A DNA stretch of 64,000 nucleotides from Planctomycetaceae bacterium (GTDB lineage: Bacteria; Planctomycetota; Planctomycetia; Planctomycetales; Planctomycetaceae). The DNA is taken from assembly GCA_041940305.1 (NCBI GenBank), contig JBGTSJ010000007.1:1-64000 (forward strand), read 5' to 3'. Position 1 is the first letter of the stretch. Each line of letters begins with the position of its first letter. Below, in pieces: positions 7,724 through 59,618 of this stretch. Made by a program: the position numbers and the translations under genes. Below the pieces are notes generated by a model that had not been told where the DNA came from, did not search any database, and worked only from the letters and a program-made list of their open reading frames with translations.

Positions 7724-7744
7724 AACCCATCACTGAAAAAGAGA

Positions 7745-7825
7745 GGCCACGGATGACGCGGATTGGACGGATTCACGCAGATCAGATCCGCGTAAATCCG
7801 TCCAATCCGCGTCATCTGCGGCCCC
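7745..7825. repeat. Family-1 palindromic element, copy A, 81 bp
   Basis: GGCCACGGATGACGCGGATTGGACGGATT-CACGCAGATCAGATCCGCGTA-AATCCGTCCAATCCGCGTCATCTGCGGCCCC, a near-perfect hairpin about 30 bp long between yqiJ-like and flotillin. Confidence 0.9.
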
Positions 7826-7879
7826 TTTGAAACGAATCAGCCAATCCCATCTCACGAGTTCTGACTCGGGCTTGAAACC

Positions 7880-9964: not shown

Positions 9965-9972
9965 TCGAAAGA

Positions 9973-10056
9973 GGGGCCACTGATGACGCGGATCTGGCGG
10001 ATTCTCGCGGATAGAATCTGCGTAAATCCGCGTCATCCGTACCATCTGCGGCCCCC
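9973..10056. repeat. Family-1 palindromic element, copy B (left boundary of GxxExxY cassette 1)
   Basis: GGGGCCACTGATGACGCGGATCTGGCGGATTCTCGCGGAT...AATCTGCGTAAATCCGCGTCATCCGTACCATCTGCGGCCCCC. Confidence 0.9.
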
Positions 10057-10073
10057 TTTGACGGGAGACTCCT

Positions 10074-10496
10074 ATGCCCAGCGACAAGCTCCTCCACGCC
10101 GACCTCACCGACGCGATCATCAAGTCGTTCTATCACGTCTACAACACGCTCGGCTTCGGCTTCCTCGAAAAGGTCTACGAGAACTCGATGGCAATCTCGC
10201 TGAGAAACGCCGGCCTGTTCGTCGTGCCCCAGATGCCGGTGGAGGTGTACTTCGAGAAACTGCGGGTCGGCACCTACTGCGCGGACCTGCTGGTTTCGAA
10301 CCTGGTCATCGTCGAGATCAAATCCGTCGAGAACCTGCACCCCGCACACGAGGCTCAGCTGATCAACTACCTGAAAGCCACTGATATCGAAGTCGGCCTG
10401 CTGCTCAACTTTGGCGAGAAACCTGAGTTCCGGCGCAAGGTTTTCAGCAACGAACGCAAGCAGCACCGAGTCGTCCCCAAAGGAGACCACGGATGA
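10074..10496 (+). CDS. GxxExxY family protein (PD-(D/E)XK nuclease-like fold)
   Basis: The motif G-F-L-E-K-V-Y-E-N is present. It is a paralog of ORF 56988..57449 with a shared core: ...ADL(I/L)V...V(I/V)VE(I/L)KS(V/A)E...HEAQL(I/V)NYL(K/R)ATDIEVGLLLNFG.KP...RKVF(S/T)N. The last codons (...VPKGDHG*) are encoded inside the right-hand palindromic repeat. Confidence 0.78.
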   Translation: MPSDKLLHADLTDAIIKSFYHVYNTLGFGFLEKVYENSMAISLRNAGLFVVPQMPVEVYFEKLRVGTYCADLLVSNLVIVEIKSVENLHPAHEAQLINYLKATDIEVGLLLNFGEKPEFRRKVFSNERKQHRVVPKGDHG

Positions 10497-10564
10497 CGCA
10501 GATGACGCGGGTTCTCGCTGATCCGCGAAAATCCGCCAGATCCGCGCCATCCGCGGTCCCCCCT
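10486..10564. repeat. Family-1 palindromic element, copy C (right boundary of GxxExxY cassette 1)
   Basis: ACCACGGATGACGCAGATGACGCGGGTTCTCGCTGATCCGCGAAAATCCGCCAGATCCGCGCCATCCGCGGTCCCCCC. Confidence 0.9.
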
Positions 10565-10567
10565 TGA

Positions 10568-16204: not shown

Positions 16205-16340
16205 GGGGGCCGCGGATCAGCGCGGATCGCTAAGCCAAGCTGTAAGTCCAGCCGTGTTGACAACACCTGAGCTGCAAATCGAGGAGGGACCTGGCGGCGC
16301 CCGGAATCCGCGCGAATCCGCCCATTCCGCGTCATCCGCG
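16205..16340. repeat. Family-1 palindromic element, copy D, 136 bp with a roughly 65-bp non-palindromic core
   Basis: Arms GGGGGCCGCGGATCAGCGCGGATCGC and GGAATCCGCGCGAATCCGCCCATTCCGCGTCATCCGCGGCCCCCCC. It lies between the giant ATPase stop and the GGDEF gene. Confidence 0.9.
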
Positions 16341-17168
16341 GCCCCCCTTTCCCGCCCCGTGTGGCTCCTGCTCGTCATCGAAGCCGCACTCGTCACGGCT
16401 TGCACCGCCCTCCTGGGCACACTGGCCGGTCTCCCTCTCGTTGCCGTCGCGCTCTGCGCCCCGCAGATCGTCGCCGCCGCCTGGATCGCCGGGACCCGCC
16501 CCGCACTGGTGCTGACGTTCGGCTCCGCATGCGGCTGGTATCTTCCGGCCATTTCGTACCGGGGAGTTGACCACGCGGCCGTCGATCTGCCATCAGCCGT
16601 GATCGGCACCGCGGTCCTCATCGCCTTCACGCTGCTGGTCCAGAAGTGGAAGGAGTCCATCCGCCGCGCCCATGAAGCGGCCGAAACGGACCCACTGACC
16701 GGTCTGCTCAATCGCCGCGGCTTCCTGGCGCGCGTCGAAGCCGAACGCAATCGCAGTCAGCGGAGCGGTGCACCGCTCGCCGTCGCCTTCCTCGACTGCG
16801 ACCGCTTCAAGGAGCTCAACGACACCCGCGGCCATCAGACGGGAGACCGCCTGCTGATCGCGACCAGCGAAGTGCTGCGGGCGAACGTCCGCAACTACGA
16901 CAGCGTGGCCCGGCTCGGAGGCGACGAATTCGCCGTGCTCTTGCCGGATGTCGAAGAGGCCGGCGCCTGTGCCGCCTCCGACCGTCTGCTCACGGCGCTG
17001 CACGCGGAGATGACCCGGCAAGGATGGCCCGTCACCTTCAGTATCGGCGTCGCCGTCTTCGCGAGGCCGCAGGCGACGACCGAGATGATCGCCGCGGCCG
17101 ACGCCGCGATGTACGAAATCAAACGCTCCGGCCGAGCCGCCGTCCGGGTCACCGTCATCAATAGCTGA
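16254..17168 (+). CDS. Membrane-anchored GGDEF-domain diguanylate cyclase; the real start is probably GTG near 16361
   Basis: 2-3 TM helices (WLLLVIEAALVTACTALLGTLAGLPLVAVALCA...) are followed by a GGDEF domain with DPLTGLLNRRGF, the active-site RLGGDEFAVLL and the I-site-like LLIATSEV. The first 35 codons of the ORF are a translation of palindromic repeat 16205-16340. Confidence 0.82.
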   Translation: MLTTPELQIEEGPGGARNPRESAHSASSAAPLSRPVWLLLVIEAALVTACTALLGTLAGLPLVAVALCAPQIVAAAWIAGTRPALVLTFGSACGWYLPAISYRGVDHAAVDLPSAVIGTAVLIAFTLLVQKWKESIRRAHEAAETDPLTGLLNRRGFLARVEAERNRSQRSGAPLAVAFLDCDRFKELNDTRGHQTGDRLLIATSEVLRANVRNYDSVARLGGDEFAVLLPDVEEAGACAASDRLLTALHAEMTRQGWPVTFSIGVAVFARPQATTEMIAAADAAMYEIKRSGRAAVRVTVINS

Positions 17169-26652: not shown

Positions 26653-27243
26653 ATGAAATCAGTGCGACGTTACCAGCAGTCAGCTAGAGCGGAGTCCGCT
26701 GCAGCGACCGGGGCTCGTATCGTCGAGGCGTTCCTCATGCGACTCAACGAGCAATGGTACGACGAGATCACACTGGATCAGGTCGCCATAGACGCCTCCG
26801 TAACGGTGCAGACCATCGTGCGGCGTTTTGGAGGCAAAGCCGGGCTGCTCGGCGAGGCAATTCGAGAAATGATTCGCCGCGCCGGGGAACGTCGTGCCGC
26901 TCCGCCGGGCGACCTGAATCAACTCGTCCGAAATCTGGTTGCCGACTATGAGGGGACCGGTGACACGATCATCCGATTACTTGCCGTTGAAGGACGGAAC
27001 GCGGTGCTTCACGAATTCCTCACGCATGCACGCGGCCGGCATCGTGACTGGATCGCGAAGGCGTTTGCAGATGATTTGGAACTGCTCGATGCGGCAGCGC
27101 GGCAGGCAACTCTTGACTCGCTGGTCGTCGCCACCGACGTCTACACATGGAAGCTGCTGCGCCGCGACATGGGTCGCTCCGTGGGTGCGGCTCGGGCTGC
27201 AATCAGCGGGATGATCCGCTCGACACTCGCCGCCTCGAAATAG
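26653..27243 (+). CDS. TetR/AcrR family transcriptional regulator
   Basis: N-terminal HTH ITLDQVAIDASVTVQTIVRRFGGKAGLL, about 196 aa. The annotated ORF start at 26422 reads through the operator palindrome and is rejected. Confidence 0.82.
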   Translation: MKSVRRYQQSARAESAAATGARIVEAFLMRLNEQWYDEITLDQVAIDASVTVQTIVRRFGGKAGLLGEAIREMIRRAGERRAAPPGDLNQLVRNLVADYEGTGDTIIRLLAVEGRNAVLHEFLTHARGRHRDWIAKAFADDLELLDAAARQATLDSLVVATDVYTWKLLRRDMGRSVGAARAAISGMIRSTLAASK

Positions 27244-34863: not shown

Positions 34864-35094
34864 GGGGGTACGCAGATGACGCAGATGCAGAGGATTGACG
34901 CAGATGCTGCGCAGGTCTTGAAGGACGGCAGAAACACTAATAGCCGCTAATCTACGCTAATTCCTGCATGAGTGTCGATTAGCGGTGATTAGCGTTCCCC
35001 TCTTCGCTTTTTTTTCCATCCCGTCGTTCGCTGTCCGCCGTCACCTCTTGAAATCCGCGTCAATCCGCCCCATCCGCGTCATCCGCGGCCCCCC
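34864..35094. repeat. Family-1 palindromic element, copy E, 231 bp, with nested internal inverted repeats
   Basis: Arms GGGGGTACGCAGATGACGCAGATGCAGAGGATTGACGCAGATGC and GAAATCCGCGTCAATCCGCCCCATCCGCGTCATCCGCGGCCCCCC. The core carries CCGCTAATC...GATTAGCGG inverted repeats. It overlaps the last 11 codons of the PVC dehydrogenase gene. Confidence 0.9.
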
Positions 35095-38000
35095 TTCCCT
35101 CCACCCCCAGCGACTCGAGGTACGCCAACAGGTCGCGGAACTCCTGCACCGTCATCCGCTCCCACAGTTTCTCCGGCATCACCGACACCCGCTGCGGCAC
35201 CCGCTCCTCGATCTCATACGTCGAGATCTCCGTCGTCCGCCCCTCGCTGTCCCCCAGCACTGTCCGCCCCTCGTTCTCATGCACGATCATCCCCGTATGC
35301 ACCACGCCGTCCGTGGTCAGCATGTTCCACGTCGTAAACTGCGGCGACACGTCCTTGCTGGGCTCCAGGATCGAATCGATCAGCTTCTCCCGCGTAAAGC
35401 TCCGCCCCACATAAGATAAATCCGGCCCCACCCGCCCCCCGCGCCCTTCAACGGTGTGGCACTTGTAACAACCGGGCCCGTTGGGGTGATAGAACACGCG
35501 GCGACCGGAGGCGACTGGATCAATGCCGGTACTCGAGCGAAGCTCCTCGTAATCGGAGGTTACCGGCAACAGCTCGGCCTTCCAGACTTCGATACGCTGA
35601 GGACGTTTGCTCCATGCCTCCTCATACATGTTGAAGCGAGCGTCATCCGCTGGCGCTGCGAGATAAAGCTGCTCCAGCCACTCCTGCAGGCTCCATGGAT
35701 TGCCGGAGTAGGCGTTCAACGAGCCTGCCACTTCGTCGCGAATTCGCTCATCAGATCGCGAGAGCGGCCGGAGTGAGCGAATCGCCGCCATTGCGAAATC
35801 GAAGTCCGAGCGCAGGAACTCCGTCAGCGCGGCCGTGGCTGGCTGATTGCCGCCGCCTTGAGCCGCGATCTTGGATAAGCCGAGCATGGCTTCTTCCACC
35901 AGAGCTGAGTATCGCGAGCGGGCCAGGCTCAGTTCAGCAAACTCGGCTTCGCTCAGTTCATCAATGGCTGCGTCGCTGAGACCGGATTCGTCGAACGGAT
36001 CCGGCTGCTTCGCTACCTCAATCAATAGCCCCTCCACTTCTTTGAGCGGCGACTCGCACAGCGACCGTACCGTCTCCAGCCGCAGATCAAAGTCGTCGCT
36101 CGCCAGCAACGCTTTCCACACGTCGATCGTGAGTTGCGGATCATCCGCCTCCACCAGCCGCAGCGCCTGCACCTTCACCGCATCCGGCGTCTCGGCATTC
36201 GTCAGCAGCGGCACAACATATTTCCCGATCGGCGCCTGCTCAAACTCCCGCGGACTCCGCCCATCCAGCATGTCCAGCGCCGCGATCGTCGCCAGAAACA
36301 ACTCCGTCGTCATCGGCTCGCTGGTGAGCACCCCCTCCACCTGCGGCCGCAATTCGGAAAGCCCCTCTTCCGCCGCCCACTGGACCGCGATGCGTCGGAC
36401 CTCGGGATCAGTATTAGCAATTGCGATCCGCAGAAACTCGTCGTCCTCTGCAAACGCGCGCCGCACCGCCAGCACCAAGACACATCGTGATGCAGACGAG
36501 ATCTCTCCAAGTCGCCGCCTCACAATTTCATCGCCGAACGTACGAGGTTCTCGATTCGCAATCGCCATTCGAAAGTAGATCCTGAGTTCCTCCTTATCCC
36601 GGGCGAGCGAGTCCACGAGGGCCGATGCCAGATTCTGAGGAATCTGCTCACGCTGTAGCTGATGAATCCTGAGAGTGCGCGCCTGCTCAAGTGGATGGCC
36701 GCCGTTGGAAAAGAACGCGGCGACGCTTCGCGATTCCCATGATTCGTACTTATCTGGCAACGTAGCGTTCCTCGGCCAGAGGAGCATGTAGTTCCAGTCG
36801 CGGTAATCCCGCACAGGACATTGAGGCACGCGACCGATGACTCTCATCATAGCGGTGCGCACTTCGTCCAGGGGCCAATGGATCACATTGGACTCTGTGC
36901 CGGTAAACCCGTAGTCAAATTCCTCAATTGGAACTTGAACGGCCTGCCAGGCAGCTTCGACTCGAGCGCGTGCGCTTAACGAACCATCATTCAGGATGTC
37001 GCTCAGCTTCTCTCGACCGTCGGCAGTTCCTCGCAATTGTTTCGCCGCGAGGCGTCGCATCGTCAACTGCCGTGAATTGAGCATTTTCGCAAGTGTTCCA
37101 ACTTCCAGTTCCGCGGATCCTCCGTCGCCACCGGAATCTTCCTCAGGCCGGGTCGGCGGCGGCTTCCCGCTAAACGGCGGATCGACGGCGCTGATCCGCC
37201 ACACCCGCCCATGCCCGTGCAGGTTGTAGTCCCGCTTCACCCAGTCGGTGCAATACAGGCTGCCGTCCGGAGCAAGCGCCAGTCCCACCGGTCGGAAATC
37301 CTCACCCCCCACGACCAGCGGCTCCGCAATCGACTCGAACGACGCACCCCGCGGCTGCAGCCGGAACCGGTCGATCCGGTGATCCCCCCAACTCGTCACC
37401 AGCAGGTTGCCCAGATACTCCTCCGGAAACGCATCGTGCTCATACGCCACAATCCCGCTCGGAGCTTCCCCCGTCCCTGCCACCATCGGCAGCGTCCCCG
37501 GGATCTCCCCGTTCCAGGCGGTAAACGGATGCTGCCCCTTGCGGCCGTTGCGGAACTTGTACCCGTAGTCCCCCCCTTCGATGACATGCAGCAACCGGCA
37601 CGGCGGCCTGCTGTCCGGATCGTTATCAACCGTGAACAACCGCCCGAACGCATCCACGCACGAAGCATGCGGATTCCAGAACCCGGTCGCCCAGTGGGAG
37701 AGCTGCGTCCCATCCGGCCGCATGCGGTAGATGTTGCCCCCCTCGCCACCGCCGGTGAGGGCCAATGAGCCGCGACCGGAAGGGAGCGGCCCGTCGGTCG
37801 CACCGGCGTCGTCGTCAATTTCTAGGCCGCTTCCCGCCGGGCGCGGCTCTTTGAGCGACTCTCGACCAACAAGCGTGTAGTCCTCGCCCAGATTCTCCCC
37901 GAACCCGAAGTACATCCACCCCAGCGCATCAAACGCAAACCCCGCCAGCCCGTTATGCGGATAGTTCCCCTTCGTCTCCAGCCGCGCCAGCACCGTCTGC

Positions 38001-38548: not shown

Positions 38549-38644
38549 CCGTCCCCTCCCAACACGTTTAGCCGCGACTCGAAGAGCGCGCCCCCCTCTA
38601 AGGTACCTCCAACACGTTAAACAAGGTCCCCACAATCCCCTCCC

Positions 38645-38715
38645 CCTGACCTCCGAGCCCCTGACCTCCGAGCCCCTGACCTCTGACCTCTGACCTCTGT
38701 CCTCTGTCCACCGAC
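38645..38715. repeat. Degenerate TGACCTC (GAGGTCA) heptamer / 15-mer tandem repeats in the 5' region of the PVC dehydrogenase gene
   Basis: (CCTGACCTCCGAGCC)x2, then TGACCTC x3, then TGTCCTC and TGTCCAC. This is the reverse complement of the (AGAGGTC)n tract at 54764 and it reads GAGGTCA toward the downstream gene at both loci. Confidence 0.85.
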
Positions 38716-38729
38716 CCCTGACTCCGTCC

Positions 38730-44217: not shown

Positions 44218-45924
44218 ATGAAAATGGGCAACAACCGGGCGCGGAGACCGTCCGCGCCGGCTTCCACTTGCCTGCAAGACGGGACGGCTGTCATGAGCGA
44301 GTTCCCCCAGTCGCAGCGGCTGCTTCAGCGGGTCATCTGGCGGATGTACGCCGTGCGGCTTGCCCGGCGCGTGTTCGTGTGGTTCGTCGTGGCGGCCACG
44401 CTGTATGCGATCGCGCTGCTCACCGCCCGGCTGACCGGGTTGATCACGGACGTTTTCGCGCCCGAGACGCTGTGGTTCATCCCCGCGGCCGCGGTGGTGC
44501 TGGGACTGCTCTCGACCCGCCGCCCGAGCCTGGAAGACGCGGCCCGCCGTACTGATACCGGCCAGGGAACGAAGGACCTGTTCCTCACGCTGACGATGCT
44601 TGACCGGTGCGCGGGCGAGTACAAGCCGCTGGTGGGCCGCGATGCCGAGCAGCGTGCCAAGGCACTGCACGCCGAGCAGGTTGTTCCGTTCGACTGGCAG
44701 AAGCCGTCGCTGCTGGGAGGGGTCGTTGCGCCGGCGACCATCGGCCTGCTGGCGCTGGGGATCTTCTTCCTGCCGTCGCTCGATCCGTTCGCGGTCCAGG
44801 CGCAGGCGAAAGAGGAAGCGACGCGCGCCGAGCGGCTGGCCGAGTCCCGCAAGGAGACGGAGGTCCGCCGCGCCCAGCTGACGCAGCGCAAGGAAACCGA
44901 CGACGAGAACTCGGAAGAGGTCGCGCAGGCGCTGGAGCGGCTGCAGGCGGACTTCCGCAAGATGCGCAAGGACCAGAAGATCCCCAACGCCGAGCGGCTG
45001 GCCGTGAATCAGAAGGACCTTGGCGAGAAGTGGCGGAAGCTCAACGCCGAGCAGCTCAAGCAGCTGATGAACTCGGAGAACCTCGACCAGCGGTTTGGCG
45101 GCGAGGACGCCGAGCAGTTCCGCGAATGGCAGAAGGAGCTGCAGCAGGGTTCGGCGGACGCGCTGGAGCAGGCGATGGAGGAACTGAAGGAAGACCTGCA
45201 GCAGCTGGCGAAGACGGATGATCCGGTCGAGCGCAGCGAGATGAAGCGGAAGATCGAGAAGCAGCTGCGCGAGATGTCGGAGTTCGCGGCGAACGAGGCC
45301 GGTTCGCCGCAGCTGGCGGCCGCGCTGCAGCGGGCGATGGACCAGATGGAGGCCATGCAGAACAGCGAATCCGAAGCGCTGGAGGCGGAAGCGCTGGCGG
45401 CGATCCAGGAGTCGATGGAGCTGGCGCAGATGGAGGCGCAGGAACTGGCTCAGGCCGCGCGCGACCTCCAGTCGCTGGAGGAGGCCCTCAATCTGATCAG
45501 CATGGCCAAGCAGCTGAACGCTGAGGAGATGCTGGACGGGGAGAGCGCCGAGGCCGCACAGTCACTGGCCGATTACGCCGAGATGTATGCGCAGATGATG
45601 GCCGACATGCAGGGGATGGGCGAACTCGGCGGCGAAGGATTCGGCGAGGGGGGCGAGGCGCCGGAGGATGAAACGGTCGAGACCGAGTTCGTCGACGAGA
45701 CTTCGAAGTCGGCGATTCAGAAGGGGAAGATCCTGCTGTCGATGAAGACGAAGGGGCTCAGCGACACGGGAGAGGCGGTGAAGGAGTACCGGGACGCCAT
45801 TGAAGACGTGAAGCAGGGAGCGGCCGAGGCCATCGAGCAGGAGGAAATTCCTCCCGGGTACATCGAGGCGATCCAGAAGTACTTCGACAAGATCGAGACC
45901 GTTGATGCCGCCGAGCCGCAGTAG
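44218..45924 (+). CDS. Membrane-anchored coiled-coil protein of unknown function
   Basis: Two N-terminal TM helices (VFVWFVVAATLYAIALLTARL and WFIPAAAVVLGLLST). A long E/Q/A/K-rich coiled coil follows, then an acidic C-terminus. Confidence 0.6.
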   Translation: MKMGNNRARRPSAPASTCLQDGTAVMSEFPQSQRLLQRVIWRMYAVRLARRVFVWFVVAATLYAIALLTARLTGLITDVFAPETLWFIPAAAVVLGLLSTRRPSLEDAARRTDTGQGTKDLFLTLTMLDRCAGEYKPLVGRDAEQRAKALHAEQVVPFDWQKPSLLGGVVAPATIGLLALGIFFLPSLDPFAVQAQAKEEATRAERLAESRKETEVRRAQLTQRKETDDENSEEVAQALERLQADFRKMRKDQKIPNAERLAVNQKDLGEKWRKLNAEQLKQLMNSENLDQRFGGEDAEQFREWQKELQQGSADALEQAMEELKEDLQQLAKTDDPVERSEMKRKIEKQLREMSEFAANEAGSPQLAAALQRAMDQMEAMQNSESEALEAEALAAIQESMELAQMEAQELAQAARDLQSLEEALNLISMAKQLNAEEMLDGESAEAAQSLADYAEMYAQMMADMQGMGELGGEGFGEGGEAPEDETVETEFVDETSKSAIQKGKILLSMKTKGLSDTGEAVKEYRDAIEDVKQGAAEAIEQEEIPPGYIEAIQKYFDKIETVDAAEPQ

Positions 45925-45965
45925 GGGCCGCGGATGACGCGGATCGGGGGGATTGACGCAGATCT
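45925..45965. repeat. Family-1 half-copy F (left arm only)
   Basis: GGGGCCGCGGATGACGCGGATCGGGGGGATTGACGCAGATC, located directly after the stop of the coiled-coil gene. No recognisable right arm is present. Confidence 0.8.
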
Positions 45966-46014
45966 GGACAGGGCGGCACGCGGGGACGCGGGTGACCGGC
46001 AGATCGTGGGGATC

Positions 46015-54600: not shown

Positions 54601-54752
54601 CCCGGCGCACCGCGGCCATCAAGCCCAAGTCGGGCGACGCGGCCGATGGCGGGCAGCGCTCCCCGACGTCCACCACACCGGGGAATACGACCACCAGCCG
54701 GCTGCTGGATATGAAGCGACGACGCCAGCAGGAGGGGGAGAAGGAGGAGTGA
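51663..54752 (+). CDS. Large membrane protein: BatA-like N-terminal double-TM, vWA domain, class-I-glutamine-amidotransferase-like domain, second vWA domain
   Basis: GTG 51663 overlaps the upstream stop (GTGA); ATG 51708 is the alternative. vWA MIDAS-like motif VVYALDISDSVGD. GATase1-like region ALLVTDPLG...DCVIFVNAPHDAF...GLGFLMVGGENSFG. Second vWA DEVGVLAYGAG...MIIISDGDPQ. Confidence 0.72.
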   Translation: MKIKRTLKSFVPSPRMKLRWTDALPLAIFLAVYAVVILLVDASKLLPEGFTARLPAGVVNALRTCEVVLFTRPVAFWLMAVTVWMWWMSLNGYSGLNRSRALTALLVRLTLVGVFVALIAEPRAVRTNDELSVVYALDISDSVGDATNKAADFIANSVSQKPPEDEAGLITFGSNAAVELPPQQSFPLEGGRLVLNSRINRDATNIEQALSLASAMIPEELRGRIVLISDGSETAGNLRQVLDELRSREITVDVLPISYSYDEEVWVERLELPQFVKIGEAYEASVVVSALQEGSGQLILEENGQEIAELEIDFQSGKNRYDIPLSIRAPGYYEYKAIIKPADAQDHLAENNEAVSYIYVEGEGKALLVTDPLGEQRDWQSLQQAIVEGERAVEVMDAYDFPRDPLSLMPYDCVIFVNAPHDAFDSVQLQALHDAVYNQGLGFLMVGGENSFGPGGYHRTVVEDVLPVSMDITKKKILPKGALAIILHTCEFPEGNTWGKRITKQAIKVLGEQDEVGVLAYGAGGEDWLFELTPAGEYEKLVPAINNAVIGDMPAFGPTMTNGLDALVKSDAATRHMIIISDGDPQPPDPPLVQRFIQEQVSVSMVAIFPHGGAEVSKMRAIASVTGGRYYFPADPNELPSIFIKEAKTLKRSMIQNEEIFPQSGFPSQVLDGIDAVPSLQGYVLTSLKETGPVEDILYTIPKDATEGETDPVLAVWRYGLGVTGAFTSDLSPNWGANWVGWEEYQAFVKQLLIRVSRVRKEGHLKLWSYTSGSEGIVMIEDFHPEEMFLDVVAQVGGPGEQTETVTLKQVGPRRYQASFPLWGKGRYQVMVLGKKGEREDRANGGFIVSYSPEYINFRSNWSVLEQIMQETGGTRLEPTATSEEIYNRRVPKQSSQPIFDWFLVALACLLPLDVAVRRVQLDWHTFKSMLGFDRRGESTQTMGALLARKKDVSSQLQRREERPLQTLAASTAYLREQQARRTAAIKPKSGDAADGGQRSPTSTTPGNTTTSRLLDMKRRRQQEGEKEE

Positions 54753-54763
54753 GGTCGGAGGGC

Positions 54764-54898
54764 AGAGGTCAGAGGTCAGAGGTCAGAGGTCAGAGGTCAG
54801 AGGTCAGAGGTCAGAGGTCAGAGGTCAGAGGTCAGAGAGCAGAGAGCAGAGAGCAGAGAGCAGAGAGCAGAGAGCAGAGAGCAGAGAGCAGAGAGCAG
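54764..54898. repeat. Heptanucleotide microsatellite: (AGAGGTC)x~10 followed by (AGAGAGC)x~9
   Basis: A perfect tandem tract of 135 bp lies between the stop of the vWA membrane-protein gene (54752) and moxR (54992). Confidence 0.95.
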
Positions 54899-54991
54899 AA
54901 CGCCGCTAACGCGGCGTGAATGCCGGGCCTAATACAGGAACGCAATTCGCAACACGCGTACCACCGATAACCGATTAGCCAATTACCCACC

Positions 54992-56062: not shown

Positions 56063-56956
56063 ATGTCGACGACTCAATTCACATCGCTGTTGCCGAACGA
56101 CGTACTGGCCCGTGTCGAGCGGATGCGGCTGAATCCGGTGCGGCGGCAGACGAACCGGATGCGGGGGGAGCATCTGTCGTCGAAGGGGGGGACCAGCATC
56201 GAGTTCGCGGACTACCGCGATTACGTCCCCGGCGACGACATCCGGTATGTGGACTGGAACATCTTCTCGCGTCTCAATCACCCCTATCTCAAGCTGTTCG
56301 CGCATGAGGAGGAGATGCACGTGGTGCTGATCCTCGATGCCTCCGCGTCGATGCAGTACGAGGGGAAGTTCGAATTGGCGCGGCAGGTGGCGGCGGCGCT
56401 GGGGGTGATGGGGCTGATGAACGTGGAGCGGGTGAGCGTGTACTCGTGCGCCTCGCTCAATAAGGAACCGGTGATCCTGCCGCCGGTCACCGGCCGCGCG
56501 AGCCTGCAGCGGTTCCTCAAGTTCCTGGAGAAGCTGGACGGGGGCGGCGAGTTTCCGGTGGAGAAGGCGATCGAGGAGATCCTCAAGCGGCATCGCGGGA
56601 AGGGAGTGGCCGTGGTGCTGTCGGACTTCCTGACGTTCGGCGACATGACGCGGCCGTTCAACATGCTCTTTAACGGCGGCCTGGAGATTTACGGGCTGCA
56701 GATCATGGGGCCGACCGAACTCGATCCCGAATTGACGGGAGACCTGCGATTCATCGATTCCGAAACGCAGCAGACGCTGGATGTCTCGTCGGTGGGCGAA
56801 CTGATCGGCATCTATCACGAGCACCGGATCGCGCTGGAGACGCACCTCTCGGCCGAGTGCCGCAAGCGGAGCGGGCGGTTCGTGTCGGTGTCGTCGAGCG
56901 AGCCGATCAAGACCGTGCTGTTTGACACACTGCTGCGACGCGGGTGGGTGCGGTAG
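56063..56956 (+). CDS. DUF58 (vWA-like) protein, MoxR partner
   Basis: IEFADYRDYVPGDDIRYVDWNIFSRLNHPYLKLF...VVLILDASASMQY. The canonical moxR-DUF58 pairing. Confidence 0.85.
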   Translation: MSTTQFTSLLPNDVLARVERMRLNPVRRQTNRMRGEHLSSKGGTSIEFADYRDYVPGDDIRYVDWNIFSRLNHPYLKLFAHEEEMHVVLILDASASMQYEGKFELARQVAAALGVMGLMNVERVSVYSCASLNKEPVILPPVTGRASLQRFLKFLEKLDGGGEFPVEKAIEEILKRHRGKGVAVVLSDFLTFGDMTRPFNMLFNGGLEIYGLQIMGPTELDPELTGDLRFIDSETQQTLDVSSVGELIGIYHEHRIALETHLSAECRKRSGRFVSVSSSEPIKTVLFDTLLRRGWVR

Positions 56957-57489
56957 GGGATAACGGGACGCAGTTGAACGCAGATGAATGGGGATTTCCG
57001 CAGATCAGGAAAGGAAGAGTGGGGCAATGGTGGGCGAGACCGATGATCTGCACTCGGAAGTGACCGGTGAAGTTATTGGCGCGTTCTACCATGTCTACAA
57101 TGCACTCGGTGAATCGGTATATCAGAATGCACTTATGTTGACGTTGCGCAAGCGAGGGTGTCTGGTGGAGGTGCGACAGGCTGTCGATGCGCGGTTTGAA
57201 GGCGTCATTGTTGGAGAATACTTCGCAGACCTGATCGTGAACGGGGTGGTGATCGTCGAGCTGAAGTCAGCGGAGACGTTGTGCGACGCTCATGAGGCGC
57301 AACTCGTGAACTATTTGCGTGCCACCGATATTGAGGTCGGGCTGCTACTGAACTTTGGACCCAAACCGCAGGTCAAACGCAAAGTTTTCACGAACGCACG
57401 AAAGCGCCGTGATTTGGCACCCTCGCCATCAGACTTGCTGCCCTCCTGATCTGCGACAATCCAGTTGATCTGCGTCCATCTGCGTTCCC
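56957..57489 (+). mobile_element. Second repeat-bounded GxxExxY cassette, inserted between the DUF58 and batA-like genes of the MoxR operon
   Basis: Left arm GGGACGCAGTTGAACGCAGATGAATGGGGATTTCCGCAGATC at 56957-57007. Right arm GATCTGCGACAATCCAGTTGATCTGCGTCCATCTGCGTTCCC at 57448-57489. These are imperfect inverted repeats and a divergent version of family-1 arms. Confidence 0.5.
56988..57449 (+). CDS. GxxExxY family protein (PD-(D/E)XK-like), paralog of 10074..10496
   Basis: It shares a core with the other paralog: ADLIVNGVVIVELKSAETLCDAHEAQLVNYLRATDIEVGLLLNFGPKPQVKRKVFTNARK. The probable start is the internal MVGETDD... at 57027. Confidence 0.75.
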   Translation: MGISADQERKSGAMVGETDDLHSEVTGEVIGAFYHVYNALGESVYQNALMLTLRKRGCLVEVRQAVDARFEGVIVGEYFADLIVNGVVIVELKSAETLCDAHEAQLVNYLRATDIEVGLLLNFGPKPQVKRKVFTNARKRRDLAPSPSDLLPS

Positions 57490-57509
57490 TCTTCCGATCG
57501 ACGATCATC

Positions 57510-59426
57510 ATGTCCTGGTTGCCTGGGTTTTCGGCGTTGTGGGGGGCGTGGCTGTTTTTGCTGCTGATCCCGCTGCTGATTTTTTACTTTCTGAAGCTGA
57601 AGCGGCCGCGGCTGGAGATTGCTTCGCTGGCGCTGTGGCGGCAGGTGATCAGCGATCAGCGGGTGAATTCGCCGTTCCAGAAGTTCAAGAGGAACCTGCT
57701 GCTGCTGCTGCAGATCATCATCCTCACGCTCATCGCGCTGGCGGCGATGCAGCCGTTCATCCGGGGGGAAGCGGCGCGGTCGGAGTATCTGCCGATCCTG
57801 ATCGACACTTCCGCGAGCATGGCGGCGATCGACGAGGAGACCGGCCAATCGCGGCTGGACCTCGCCAAGGAAGAAGTCCGCGAGATTATCGAGGGGATGC
57901 TTCCCGGCCAGCAGATCACGCTGATCGCGGTGGGCTCCACGGTCCGGCGTCCGACGGAGTTCACGGACAACAAGCCGCTGCTGCTGTCGGCCCTCGACGG
58001 CATCGAGGCGTCGGACGTGCCGAGCCGGTTCGAGGACGGGCTGCAGGTGGCACAGGCGCTCACGCGGACGTTCGCGATCGACAAGGTGCGGCTGTATTCG
58101 GACGGGAACCTGCCGACGCGTCCGACCCCCACCGGTCAGCACGTGGCGGCGGTGGACTTCGACCTTTCGTACCAGCTCGAGTTCTTCCAGCTGCCGCCGG
58201 CGGGGCGGAATATGGGGATCACGGCGCTCAATGCCCGGCGGCGGTCGGTGGATGAATGGCAGATCTTCGTGCGGGTCGAGGCGGCGGAGGCGGCGTCCGT
58301 GACGGGGCAGGTCGAGCTGCTGCTGAACGGGCAGCCGCTGGGTGCACCGGAACCGGTCGTGCTCGACCCATCGGAGTCACAGCGGCTGGAGTTCGCCGTG
58401 AGTGCGCGGGAGGCGGCCTTCCTGGAAGCGCGGCTGAAGGTGGACGGCCACGATTCGCTCGAGTCGGACAACGTCGCGTTTCTGGAGCTGCCGGTCGGTC
58501 GCGAACTACTGGTGTACTGCGCGACGAGCCTGGCGACGTACCGGCATTCGCTGTCGGGGCTGGAAGGGCTGATCATGGAACCGAGCCCGCAGGGGGAGGA
58601 AAGCCTGTCTTCGTACGATCTGGTCATTACGGACACGCTGGACGATCTGTCGAAGGACTCGACGACCTACTTCTTCGTGGGGGTCATTCCGGCTGATTTA
58701 AGAGAATTGATCACCGTGCAGACCGATCTGGCCGAAGTGGTGGACTGGAAGCGCGACGCACCGTTGCTGCAGCACGTGCAGCTCAAGGAAGTGCAGATCT
58801 CCGATCTGCCGAAGCGGCAACCGGACGTGGAAGACGGAGACTTTGAGGAACTCGGTTACGAACTGCTGGCGTTCGGCAACGAGGGGCCGTTGATTGTCCG
58901 AAAACGGGACGGCCGCAAGCTGCTGTATTACTTCCTGTTCCACACGGACCGGTCCACCCTGCCCTATCGCGTCGGCTTTCCGATCCTGGTCCAGAACGTG
59001 GTGAACGAGGCGCTGCAGCAGGCATCGCTGTCGGAACTGAGCGCGATGACGACCGGGATCCTGCCCCCGCTGCGTGTCGAGGGAAACTCCACTTACCGCG
59101 TGACGACGCCCAGCGGCGAGTCGATCGAGGCCACGACGGGGGAGAACGGCCTGCTGGAGGGGATCCCGGCGGGCAAAGTCGGCGAATACGAAGTGCGGCA
59201 GGGAGGGAATGTGGTCCGGCGATTCGGCGTCGGGCTCCTCAATTCGACCGAGTCGTCGCTGGTGGGGGTGGACGAAATTCAGTTCCGCGAGATCAAGGTG
59301 GCCGCCGAGGAGGAACGGCTCAAAACCGACAAGCCGCTGTGGACGACGCTGGCCATCGTGGCGTTCAGCGTGTTGATGATCGAGTGGTGGTATTTTCAGA
59401 AGAAACCCGCCGGGATGCCGAACTGA
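57510..59426 (+). CDS. BatA-like protein: N-terminal double-TM anchor plus a vWA domain
   Basis: MSWLPGFSALWGAWLFLLLIPLLIFYFLKLKRP...LLLLLQIIILTLIALAAMQPF (two TM helices). vWA motif LPILIDTSASMAA. A C-terminal TM helix. An upstream TTG at 57465 is the alternative start. Confidence 0.78.
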   Translation: MSWLPGFSALWGAWLFLLLIPLLIFYFLKLKRPRLEIASLALWRQVISDQRVNSPFQKFKRNLLLLLQIIILTLIALAAMQPFIRGEAARSEYLPILIDTSASMAAIDEETGQSRLDLAKEEVREIIEGMLPGQQITLIAVGSTVRRPTEFTDNKPLLLSALDGIEASDVPSRFEDGLQVAQALTRTFAIDKVRLYSDGNLPTRPTPTGQHVAAVDFDLSYQLEFFQLPPAGRNMGITALNARRRSVDEWQIFVRVEAAEAASVTGQVELLLNGQPLGAPEPVVLDPSESQRLEFAVSAREAAFLEARLKVDGHDSLESDNVAFLELPVGRELLVYCATSLATYRHSLSGLEGLIMEPSPQGEESLSSYDLVITDTLDDLSKDSTTYFFVGVIPADLRELITVQTDLAEVVDWKRDAPLLQHVQLKEVQISDLPKRQPDVEDGDFEELGYELLAFGNEGPLIVRKRDGRKLLYYFLFHTDRSTLPYRVGFPILVQNVVNEALQQASLSELSAMTTGILPPLRVEGNSTYRVTTPSGESIEATTGENGLLEGIPAGKVGEYEVRQGGNVVRRFGVGLLNSTESSLVGVDEIQFREIKVAAEEERLKTDKPLWTTLAIVAFSVLMIEWWYFQKKPAGMPN

Positions 59427-59446
59427 GGCGTAGGTCAGGGAAACAA

Positions 59447-59586
59447 GGCCGCGGATGACGCGGATCCGGCTGGTCTTCGCGGAGAACAAGAACGTCATGG
59501 ACCAGCGGTAATCGGCCGGCCACAAATCTCACCCCTGTCTGGATTCTGATCCGCGGAAATCCGCCTGATCCGCGTCATCCGCGGCC
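59447..59586. repeat. Family-1 palindromic element, copy H, 140 bp
   Basis: GGCCGCGGATGACGCGGATCCGGCTGGTCTTCGCGGAGAAC...GATTCTGATCCGCGGAAATCCGCCTGATCCGCGTCATCCGCGGCC. It lies between the batA-like stop and the next gene. Confidence 0.9.
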
Positions 59587-59618
59587 TCCTTTCACGTCGT
59601 TCGCAATCACCCCTTCCT

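Follow-up and report, generated by a model that had tools for sequence, protein, structure and literature searches.

What ties a small gene of the GxxExxY family, which encodes a protein with a PD-(D/E)XK nuclease fold, to the inverted repeats that bound it, and does the gene travel with them? The question is raised by a 64,000-nt stretch of a planctomycete metagenome-assembled genome (Planctomycetaceae bacterium, GCA_041940305.1, contig JBGTSJ010000007.1, positions 1 to 64,000), referred to here as the window, of which a 15-kb stretch recurs identically in GCA_041941145.1. The window carries two GxxExxY paralogs, each bounded by repeat arms made of short hexamer units, and the same arms recur without the gene at other positions. 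We found that gene and arms form one unit across phyla, a conclusion that is strongly supported by the loci compared below. We put at about 0.55 the probability that this unit, the cassette, is a selfish or semi-domesticated module: its nuclease would recognise the hexamer arrays, recombination between arm-bearing sites would spread its gene, and its gene-less forms would be derivatives or targets.

The two cassettes of the window comprise the following features, in which the E-values of arms refer to a hidden Markov model (HMM) of the arm.

9973 to 10056, unstranded: palindrome upstream of gene 1, with a left arm at 9974-10019 and a right arm at 10010-10053 (arm HMM E 2e-8 and 3e-7).
10074 to 10496, plus strand: gene 1, GxxExxY/PDDEXK_3, 140 aa, with D71, E81 and K83 conserved.
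10484 to 10562, unstranded: palindrome downstream of gene 1 (arm HMM E 1e-6 and 6e-7; hairpin fold).
56958 to 57010, plus strand: left arm of cassette 2 (GGGACGCAGTTGAACGCAGATG...GCAGATCAGGA), a few bases past the DUF58 stop (arm HMM E 5.5e-4).
57027 to 57449, plus strand: gene 2, GxxExxY/PDDEXK_3, placed by homologue alignment and HMM matches.
57444 to 57497, minus strand: right arm of cassette 2, with three ATCTGC units and the terminus GCGTTCCC (arm HMM E 4e-6).

Each arm is about 40 nt long and begins with a terminal motif, followed by three to four hexamers of the form N-C-N-G-A-T at a period of 9-10 nt. The terminal motif is AGAAC in most phyla and GGGCC or GGRAC in the window, and the left arm reads GGGGCC-R-CGGATGAC-GCGGAT-n3-GCGGAT-n4-GCGGAT, with the right arm as its reverse complement. 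Cassette 2 has the simple form of left arm, gene and right arm, with an inverted repeat of 45-46 nt; the stop codon of its gene (TGA, 57447-57449) lies at the inner edge of the right arm, at its first unit, and the BatA start follows at 57511. The flanks of cassette 1 (9968-10012 and 10521-10565) form a 45-nt inverted repeat that is 84% complementary, and each belongs to a complete palindrome (9973-10056 and 10484-10562), so that these flanks are direct as well as inverted repeats. The upstream palindrome directly follows the stop of a 694-aa gene and is predicted to fold into an RNA hairpin of -51 kcal/mol (z -7.6). The downstream palindrome ends 6 nt ahead of the start of a DUF3686/AAA gene, and its left half is overlapped by the last codons and the stop of gene 1 (TGA, 10494-10496). 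The original prediction, made from the window alone, that both paralogs are bounded by arms forming terminal inverted repeats and that their stop codons lie within those repeats, is thereby borne out in both cassettes. It had also begun gene 2 at position 56988, which must be revised: homologue alignment and the start of the homologue at the same site in a related locus (L086) make the ATG at 57027 the most likely start, and the open reading frame (ORF) therefore does not begin within the left arm.

The association of gene and arms was followed in a cross-phylum sample, for which one genome per species was scanned and 80 loci were obtained, all encoding proteins 54-66% identical to gene 1. The loci come from Planctomycetota, Bacteroidota, Ignavibacteriota, Chloroflexota, Acidobacteriota, Nitrospirota, Desulfuromonadales, Chlorobia and others, and include a Heliomicrobium bin and a Methanoperedenaceae archaeon. 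By eye, a forward unit array lies upstream and a reverse array downstream in most loci (for example, AATAGAAC-ACGGAT-GAC-ACGGAT-TGG-ACGGAT). The median inverted-repeat score was 37 between a gene's own two flanks, compared with 21 in the direct orientation and 20 when the flanks of different loci were compared. At 55 of 71 GxxExxY loci the flanks had an inverted or direct repeat scoring above 100 shuffles, as did 5 of 64 control ORFs from the same loci, and some arm signal was present at 65 of the 71. The arm HMM, built from loci of other phyla (consensus AATAGAACGCGGATGACGCGGATTTAGCGGATTTACACGGAT), matched the window arms at E 3e-3 to 1e-9 and had no matches in block-shuffled loci. In the 260 nt on either side of a GxxExxY gene there were 3.95 arms per kb, versus 0.18 per kb elsewhere in the loci, a 22-fold difference. 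Median arm length over 54 cassettes was 40 nt, with 87% identity between partner arms, which qualify as terminal inverted repeats.

The geometry of the arms is equally regular. Inner distances between left and right arms have three modes: 34 pairs lie at about 0 nt, 15 at about 45 nt and 33 at 353-532 nt. A GxxExxY gene is enclosed in all 33 pairs of the last class, and gene-less forms come in discrete sizes. Only two other cargos were seen between arms, one of 142 nt in the window and one of 234 nt with a 67-aa ORF in a related locus (L004). The commonest architecture, found in 25 of 75 loci, is left arm, gene and right arm. Forms in which one or both flanks are complete palindromes, as in cassette 1, are also frequent, and a palindrome followed by the gene and a right arm accounts for six of the 75. 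In most loci an arm ends a few to some tens of nucleotides ahead of the start codon and the stop lies in or beside the right arm. The check that had been proposed, whether arms also bound other GxxExxY loci, thus turned out positive for 65 of 71 loci, and the claimed tie between an orphan nuclease-fold family and a specific repeat is upheld by these counts, by the 22-fold enrichment and by the 33 gene-sized arm pairs.

Gene-less arms are common. In the window they occupy five sites, all of them intergenic, in addition to the two palindromes around cassette 1.

7743 to 7826, unstranded: gene-less palindrome with abutting arms (arm HMM E 4e-9 and 1e-9; hairpin of -66 and -77 kcal/mol on the two strands).
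16205 to 16350, unstranded: gene-less arm pair, about 75 nt apart, with a weak left arm (right arm HMM E 3e-3).
34865 to 35097, unstranded: gene-less arm pair, 142 nt apart, found with the arm HMM.
45923 to 45969, plus strand: lone left arm, directly past the stop codon of the upstream gene (arm HMM E 1e-5).
59446 to 59590, unstranded: gene-less arm pair, about 58-70 nt apart, downstream of BatA (arm HMM E 2e-4 and 4e-8).

These sites agree with the earlier claim that the arms also occur without the gene as short palindromes, with 45923-45969 as a lone arm for which no partner was detected. The pair at 16205-16350 lies directly past the stop of the DUF3686 gene, and the pair at 59446-59590 is missing at the same position in relatives. 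An arm-first search of viral contigs returned 29 loci, all gene-less and many with lone arms, and is uninformative on cargo. Two smaller observations concern these copies. Degenerate GCGGGG/GCGGGT units follow the lone left arm, and a second inverted array (two GCTAAT units, then two ATTAGC units, followed by a T-run) is nested at 34940-35010 within the pair at 34865-35097.

The arms conserve particular bases in addition to their complementarity. Successive units start 9 nt apart 44 times and 10 nt apart 19 times. Mismatches between partner arms occur at rates of 0.17, 0.02, 0.32, 0.02, 0.02 and 0.02 along the six hexamer positions and 0.16 in the spacers; C..GAT is thus nearly fixed, and the third base is free (CGGAT, CAGAT, CTGAT). 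At orthologous site 1 loci, the arms are 83% identical even though synonymous sites differ by 43%, from which it follows that the arms are constrained or homogenised. We infer that the arms are recognised as a specific sequence and not through pairing alone, because bases are conserved at a helical period with mispairing tolerated. A difference in specificity between the two window cassettes, suggested by GCGGAT in one and GCAGAT in the other, was rejected, the third position being mismatched at 32% within single cassettes. Inspection by eye also argued against CsrA sites (CAGAT, CTGAT and ATGAT have no GGA) and against DnaA boxes (the CACA core is missing).

Both genes belong to the family by score: gene 1 matches TIGR04256 (GxxExxY) at 128.8 bits (cut-off 35) and PF13366 (PDDEXK_3) at 133.7 bits (cut-off 22; E 5e-39), and gene 2 matches them at 105.9 bits (cut-off 35) and 112.1 bits (cut-off 22; E 2.5e-32), respectively. 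No other Pfam or NCBIfam family, including any HUH/Y1 transposase, was matched by either gene. An alignment of 16 sequences from different phyla shows no variation in the GxxExxY motif or at D71, E81 and K83. Gene 2 is without four residues beside the motif (its motif region reads LGESVY) but retains the D and ExK residues. A confident AlphaFold model (predicted local distance difference test 89, predicted template modelling score 0.83) has the PD-(D/E)XK fold; the conserved D...(D/E)xK, placed on a predicted restriction-endonuclease-like alpha/beta core, accords with membership in that superfamily. Compared with its 91% identical ortholog, gene 1 has a nonsynonymous divergence (dN) of 0.043 and a synonymous divergence (dS) of 0.64 (dN/dS ~0.07), much like a neighbouring gene in the same comparison (dN 0.047, dS 0.51), and on these substitution rates it is under strong purifying selection. 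Together with the invariant residues and the confident model, this speaks for a functional protein. The two window paralogs are about 52% identical in protein. A sequence search of the PDB with the family profile found no match, that is, no solved structure detectable by sequence; PADLOC models gave nothing beyond marginal Cas4 similarity (E ~0.008), and PHROGs models did not match the GxxExxY protein. An exhaustive search put the family at 26,964 clusters at 50% identity, and a word-indexed search found more than 7,900 proteins at E<=1e-5 among the candidates examined. Some members (P0241-P0245, P0255 and others) are about 260 aa long and have a tandem pair of GxxExxY domains. They may be fused dimers, a point relevant to how inverted arms might be bound.

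The second cassette provides the best view of change at a single site. It had been claimed to part the normally adjacent DUF58 and batA-like genes, and these genes are indeed adjacent and arm-free in two outgroups, separated by 48 nt in Planctomicrobium sp. SH664 and by 158 nt in Thalassoglobus polymorphus. A cassette is present at the junction in the window and in closer relatives (L086/L137, L089/L090 and L095/L096), whose DUF58 proteins are 77-88% identical to that of the window, and a gene-less AATGACG/CGTCATT inverted array is found there in the lineage of L092/L093/L094/L138. The proposed search for empty sites thus gave filled junctions in the window, L086/L137, L089 and L095 and empty ones in L135 and L136, so that occupied and unoccupied versions of one site exist among related genomes, as for a homing endonuclease gene; a metagenome scan with DUF58 gave 17 loci, few of which extend to the junction. 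The proportion of synonymous differences (pS) among the cassette genes of the window, L086, L089 and L095 is 0.67-0.87, compared with 0.73 for the two unrelated window paralogs, 0.48-0.58 for DUF58 and 0.52-0.58 for BatA (three pairs not involving the window). Protein identities among the occupants are 54-73%, the L089 and L095 proteins find their best matches in other parts of the family, and arm sequences and junction positions differ by lineage. On these comparisons the occupants are not orthologous. The divergence indicates that the site was filled repeatedly or that a cassette was replaced there, because the occupants are as divergent as random paralogs and more so than DUF58, and the outgroups are cassette-free. 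Such turnover would be expected if arm-bearing sites attract new cassettes.

The first cassette has a different history. Orthologs of gene 1 occupy the same place, between the 694-aa gene and the next gene, in L004 (91% identical) and L005 (77%), and cassette 1 is old and vertically inherited at its site. The window and L004 also differ by a 250-nt indel consisting of a small ORF and a right arm, bounded by direct right arms, which is directly visible recombination between arms. The small ORF calls for a separate remark: the L004 sequence at 1605-1808 places a 67-aa ORF (MVLGKRVPLTPAETAERL...) between a decayed palindrome and an extra right arm, the ORF is missing from the window at that point, it had no Pfam family match, and it is the sole protein-sized cargo other than GxxExxY seen between arms.

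We propose the following mechanism. The cassette, which is widespread in bacteria, is a gene of 125-140 aa with a PD-(D/E)XK fold at the dyad of a palindromic unit of about 0.5 kb. The encoded nuclease would recognise the hexamer arrays of its own arms and cut at or near arm-bearing sites, and recombinational repair between such sites would copy or exchange the gene. The gene-less palindromes, which are far more numerous, would be non-autonomous derivatives, targets or both, as are repetitive extragenic palindrome (REP) doublets forming hairpins (REPINs) and miniature inverted-repeat transposable elements (MITEs). Where a palindrome is followed by the gene and a right arm, recombination between the two direct right arms would offer a simple route from filled to empty. 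That the protein binds or cuts the arms, and that this activity drives the spread, we infer. Beyond this, we tentatively suggest, at somewhat below even odds, that GxxExxY proteins are the enzymes of a new class of minimal mobile element, in which a lone nuclease of about 130 aa homes or transposes between hexamer-array palindromes.

Several results weigh against this mechanism. Gene 1 co-diverges with its upstream neighbour (91% versus 92% in L004 and 77% versus 80% in L005). No recent multiplication was found: an identical protein (P0038) occurs in one context on 16 contigs, and near-identical gene-bearing copies at different sites, as expected of insertion sequences or MITEs, were seen neither for P0038 nor for the two divergent window paralogs. 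No target-site duplication was evident at the junctions inspected, which included no closely matched filled and empty alleles. Six of the 71 GxxExxY loci have no detectable arm signal, and the arm HMM and the enrichment come from the same 80 loci, with the seeds taken across whole loci. The viral contigs, searched arm-first, gave only gene-less arms, and the arms could depend on another enzyme. In 65 of 73 loci the cassette runs in the direction of the upstream gene, and this co-orientation, together with pairing of the arms at the RNA level, also fits a role in RNA. The earlier statement that the cassettes travel is supported over evolutionary time by the DUF58-BatA junction, with its non-orthologous cassettes in four lineages, gene-less array in a fifth and cassette-free outgroups; no sign of recent movement was found.

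If the arms instead act in RNA, the cassette would be transcribed together with its operon and the arms would pair into a roughly 40-bp stem that holds the ORF in its loop, as in the intervening sequences of 23S rRNA, and serves as an RNase III site, a stabiliser or a terminator; the stem would control GxxExxY expression or insulate the host operon, and the gene-less palindromes would be mRNA stabilisers or terminators of the REP type. The cassette gene is also co-oriented with the downstream gene (57 of 68 loci), the minimum-energy fold of 56950-57505 pairs the left arm of cassette 2 with its right arm, the gene-less palindromes are predicted to form hairpins of -45 to -77 kcal/mol (z -5.7 to -14), and some gene-less cores have a terminator-like hairpin of their own, all of which speak for such a role. 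Nevertheless, we consider it unlikely. Pairing alone leaves the near-invariance of C..GAT beside a 32% mismatch rate at the third position unexplained, the mismatches have no G-U strand bias (60 versus 75) and include 163 transversions among 298, the two strands form hairpins equally well, and Rfam 15 yielded only sub-threshold matches to hairpin-like miRNA families (24-30 bits, compared with gathering scores of 71-95). The replacement of cassettes at one site would likewise go unexplained. About as improbable, in our estimate, is that the arms are an independent family of the MITE or REP kind, moved by another enzyme, with GxxExxY genes as passengers or as neighbours beside which the repeats prefer to insert. 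Arms without the gene are indeed much more numerous than filled cassettes, in the window as well as in viral contigs that have many arm pairs and no GxxExxY gene in the fragment, and AGTGGC, AATGACG and GCTAAT inverted arrays exist in the same genomes without such a gene. A passive passenger is nevertheless hard to reconcile with the conservation of both protein and arms across phyla, with GxxExxY as the sole protein family in the 33 gene-sized arm pairs, or with the fixed placement of the arm just ahead of the start codon and of the stop in or beside the right arm; moreover, no recurrent transposase or recombinase was found near the arms among the called genes listed.

The palindrome-gene-palindrome form of cassette 1 is what would be expected if a circle integrated at a palindrome, and the indel between the window and L004 consists of cargo plus one arm. 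Both would suit integron-like cassettes, in which the palindrome is attC-like and a site-specific recombinase acting in trans moves circles of gene plus palindrome. We regard this as very improbable, given that the cassettes are dispersed singletons (two cassettes occur in 1 of 80 loci), that no integrase is present among the called neighbour genes listed, that the commonest form, left arm, gene and right arm, is not produced by circle integration, and that the arms are hexamer arrays and not attC-type sites. Still less can be said for the explanation named in the original prediction as its possible refutation, that the flanks are simply the conserved untranslated regions of a duplicated gene, or that their similarity is due to chance. 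The flank motifs are common to the two window paralogs, as it would require; yet each flank is the inverted copy of the other, gene-free copies exist, and the flanks are conserved across phyla though synonymous sites have reached saturation even between the paralogs of a single genome. Chance is further opposed by the absence of arm-model matches in shuffled sequence and by the excess of flank repeats at GxxExxY loci over control ORFs, and we regard this explanation as refuted.

With the nuclease-driven module as the preferred reading, its nearest counterparts among known systems can be compared. REPINs and their REP-associated tyrosine transposases (RAYTs) likewise combine a small nuclease-type gene with flanking inverted repeat copies that are dispersed as gene-less doublets with defined spacers; the gene copy is stable, vertically inherited and under purifying selection, and the repeats within a genome are alike. 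They differ in that the RAYT enzyme has an HUH/Y1 transposase fold where the cassette enzyme is PD-(D/E)XK, and in that their repeat is a single REP hairpin of 20-25 nt with a GTAG/CGTC tag where the cassette arm has three to four CNGAT hexamers. RAYTs are also typically single-copy, whereas the window has at least two GxxExxY paralogs in 64 kb. Homing endonuclease genes, free-standing or intron-borne, include a PD-(D/E)XK example, I-Ssp6803I. Like the cassette, they are small nuclease genes placed at the centre of a symmetric sequence of which uninterrupted versions exist as well, and their site is occupied by different variants in relatives; at the cassette junctions inspected, no target-site duplication was evident either. 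The cassette, unlike them, has no intron or intein, its putative target is a dispersed non-coding palindrome and not a conserved host gene, its arms offer only about 40 nt of homology, and cleavage is putative. The cassette is closest in logic to these two systems and a member of neither, because its enzyme is PD-(D/E)XK and not HUH, it has no intron or intein, and its arms are hexamer arrays and not REP hairpins.

More distant likenesses are found among transposons. The ends of Tn7 act with the PD-(D/E)XK protein TnsA, and the ends of Ac/Ds carry AAACGG hexamers. Tn7, Ac/Ds and MITEs share with the cassette inverted ends composed of several short direct repeats and gene-less derivatives that keep only the ends, and in Tn7 a PD-(D/E)XK nuclease (TnsA) can join in end cleavage. 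The cassettes differ in having no DDE transposase or other partner gene; no target-site duplication was seen at the junctions inspected, nor were near-identical multi-copy gene cassettes. The intervening sequences of 23S rRNA, which carry S23p/four-helix-bundle ORFs, for example in Coxiella (PMC4990558), resemble the cassette as selfish elements of about 0.4-0.7 kb with an inverted-repeat stem and a small ORF in the loop, transcribed within the host transcript. They are located in rRNA helices, are excised by RNase III and have a different ORF family, whereas the cassettes sit in ordinary intergenic spacers and have arms that are unit arrays pairing imperfectly.

The function of PDDEXK_3 was listed as unknown in the superfamily survey of Steczkiewicz et al. 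2012 (PMC3424549), and we found no later paper on the PF13366/TIGR04256 family. A full-text literature search, which did not extend to the free-text model descriptions of curators, found no paper linking the GxxExxY family to repeats; the gene-repeat link and the hexamer-array palindrome family have apparently not been described before. The orphan family thereby gains a defined DNA motif array as a candidate substrate and a testable hypothesis. If the nuclease does act on the arms, it would represent a new bacterial enzyme class for repeat propagation or homing, and the origin of many intergenic palindromes in Planctomycetota, Bacteroidota, Chloroflexota and others would be explained. Should the broader suggestion of a new class of mobile element prove true, one of the most widely distributed families of intergenic palindromes in bacteria would owe both its origin and its maintenance to GxxExxY proteins, which would form a second, mechanistically independent counterpart of the RAYT/REPIN system in many phyla and at least one archaeal bin. 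In practical terms, the cassettes insert inside operons (here MoxR-DUF58-BatA), and translated arm sequence gives some family members variable C-terminal tails. The legend of Fig. 6 in PMC10910872 prompts the speculation that small selfish ORFs with periodic-repeat flanks could be scored as array-associated.

Some minor observations accompany these results. Small insertions accumulate at several junctions of the MoxR-DUF58-BatA operon: between MoxR and DUF58, the related loci L089 (2188-2991), L090 and L092 (500-1273) have a DUF4058 gene (PF13267, E 4e-69) that is missing from the window, and Thalassoglobus has an esterase gene. Many GxxExxY-bearing contigs are only about 1 kb long, and the flanking arms probably break short-read assemblies. 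Other gene-less inverted arrays were seen in relatives, of the AGTGGC type past BatA (L095, 6650-6860; L096, 4055-4230) and of the AATGACG/CGTCATT type at the DUF58-BatA site (L092, 3493-3743; L138, 922-1010), and such short-unit inverted arrays may form a wider class of intergenic element. Tandem heptamers occur in the window at 54751-54899 (12 copies of GAGGTCA, then nine of GAGAGCA), between a large VWA gene and MoxR, and the reverse-complement type, CTGACCT, is repeated 10.7 times at 38643-38726; both arrays resemble the short tandemly repeated repetitive (STRR) sequences of cyanobacteria.

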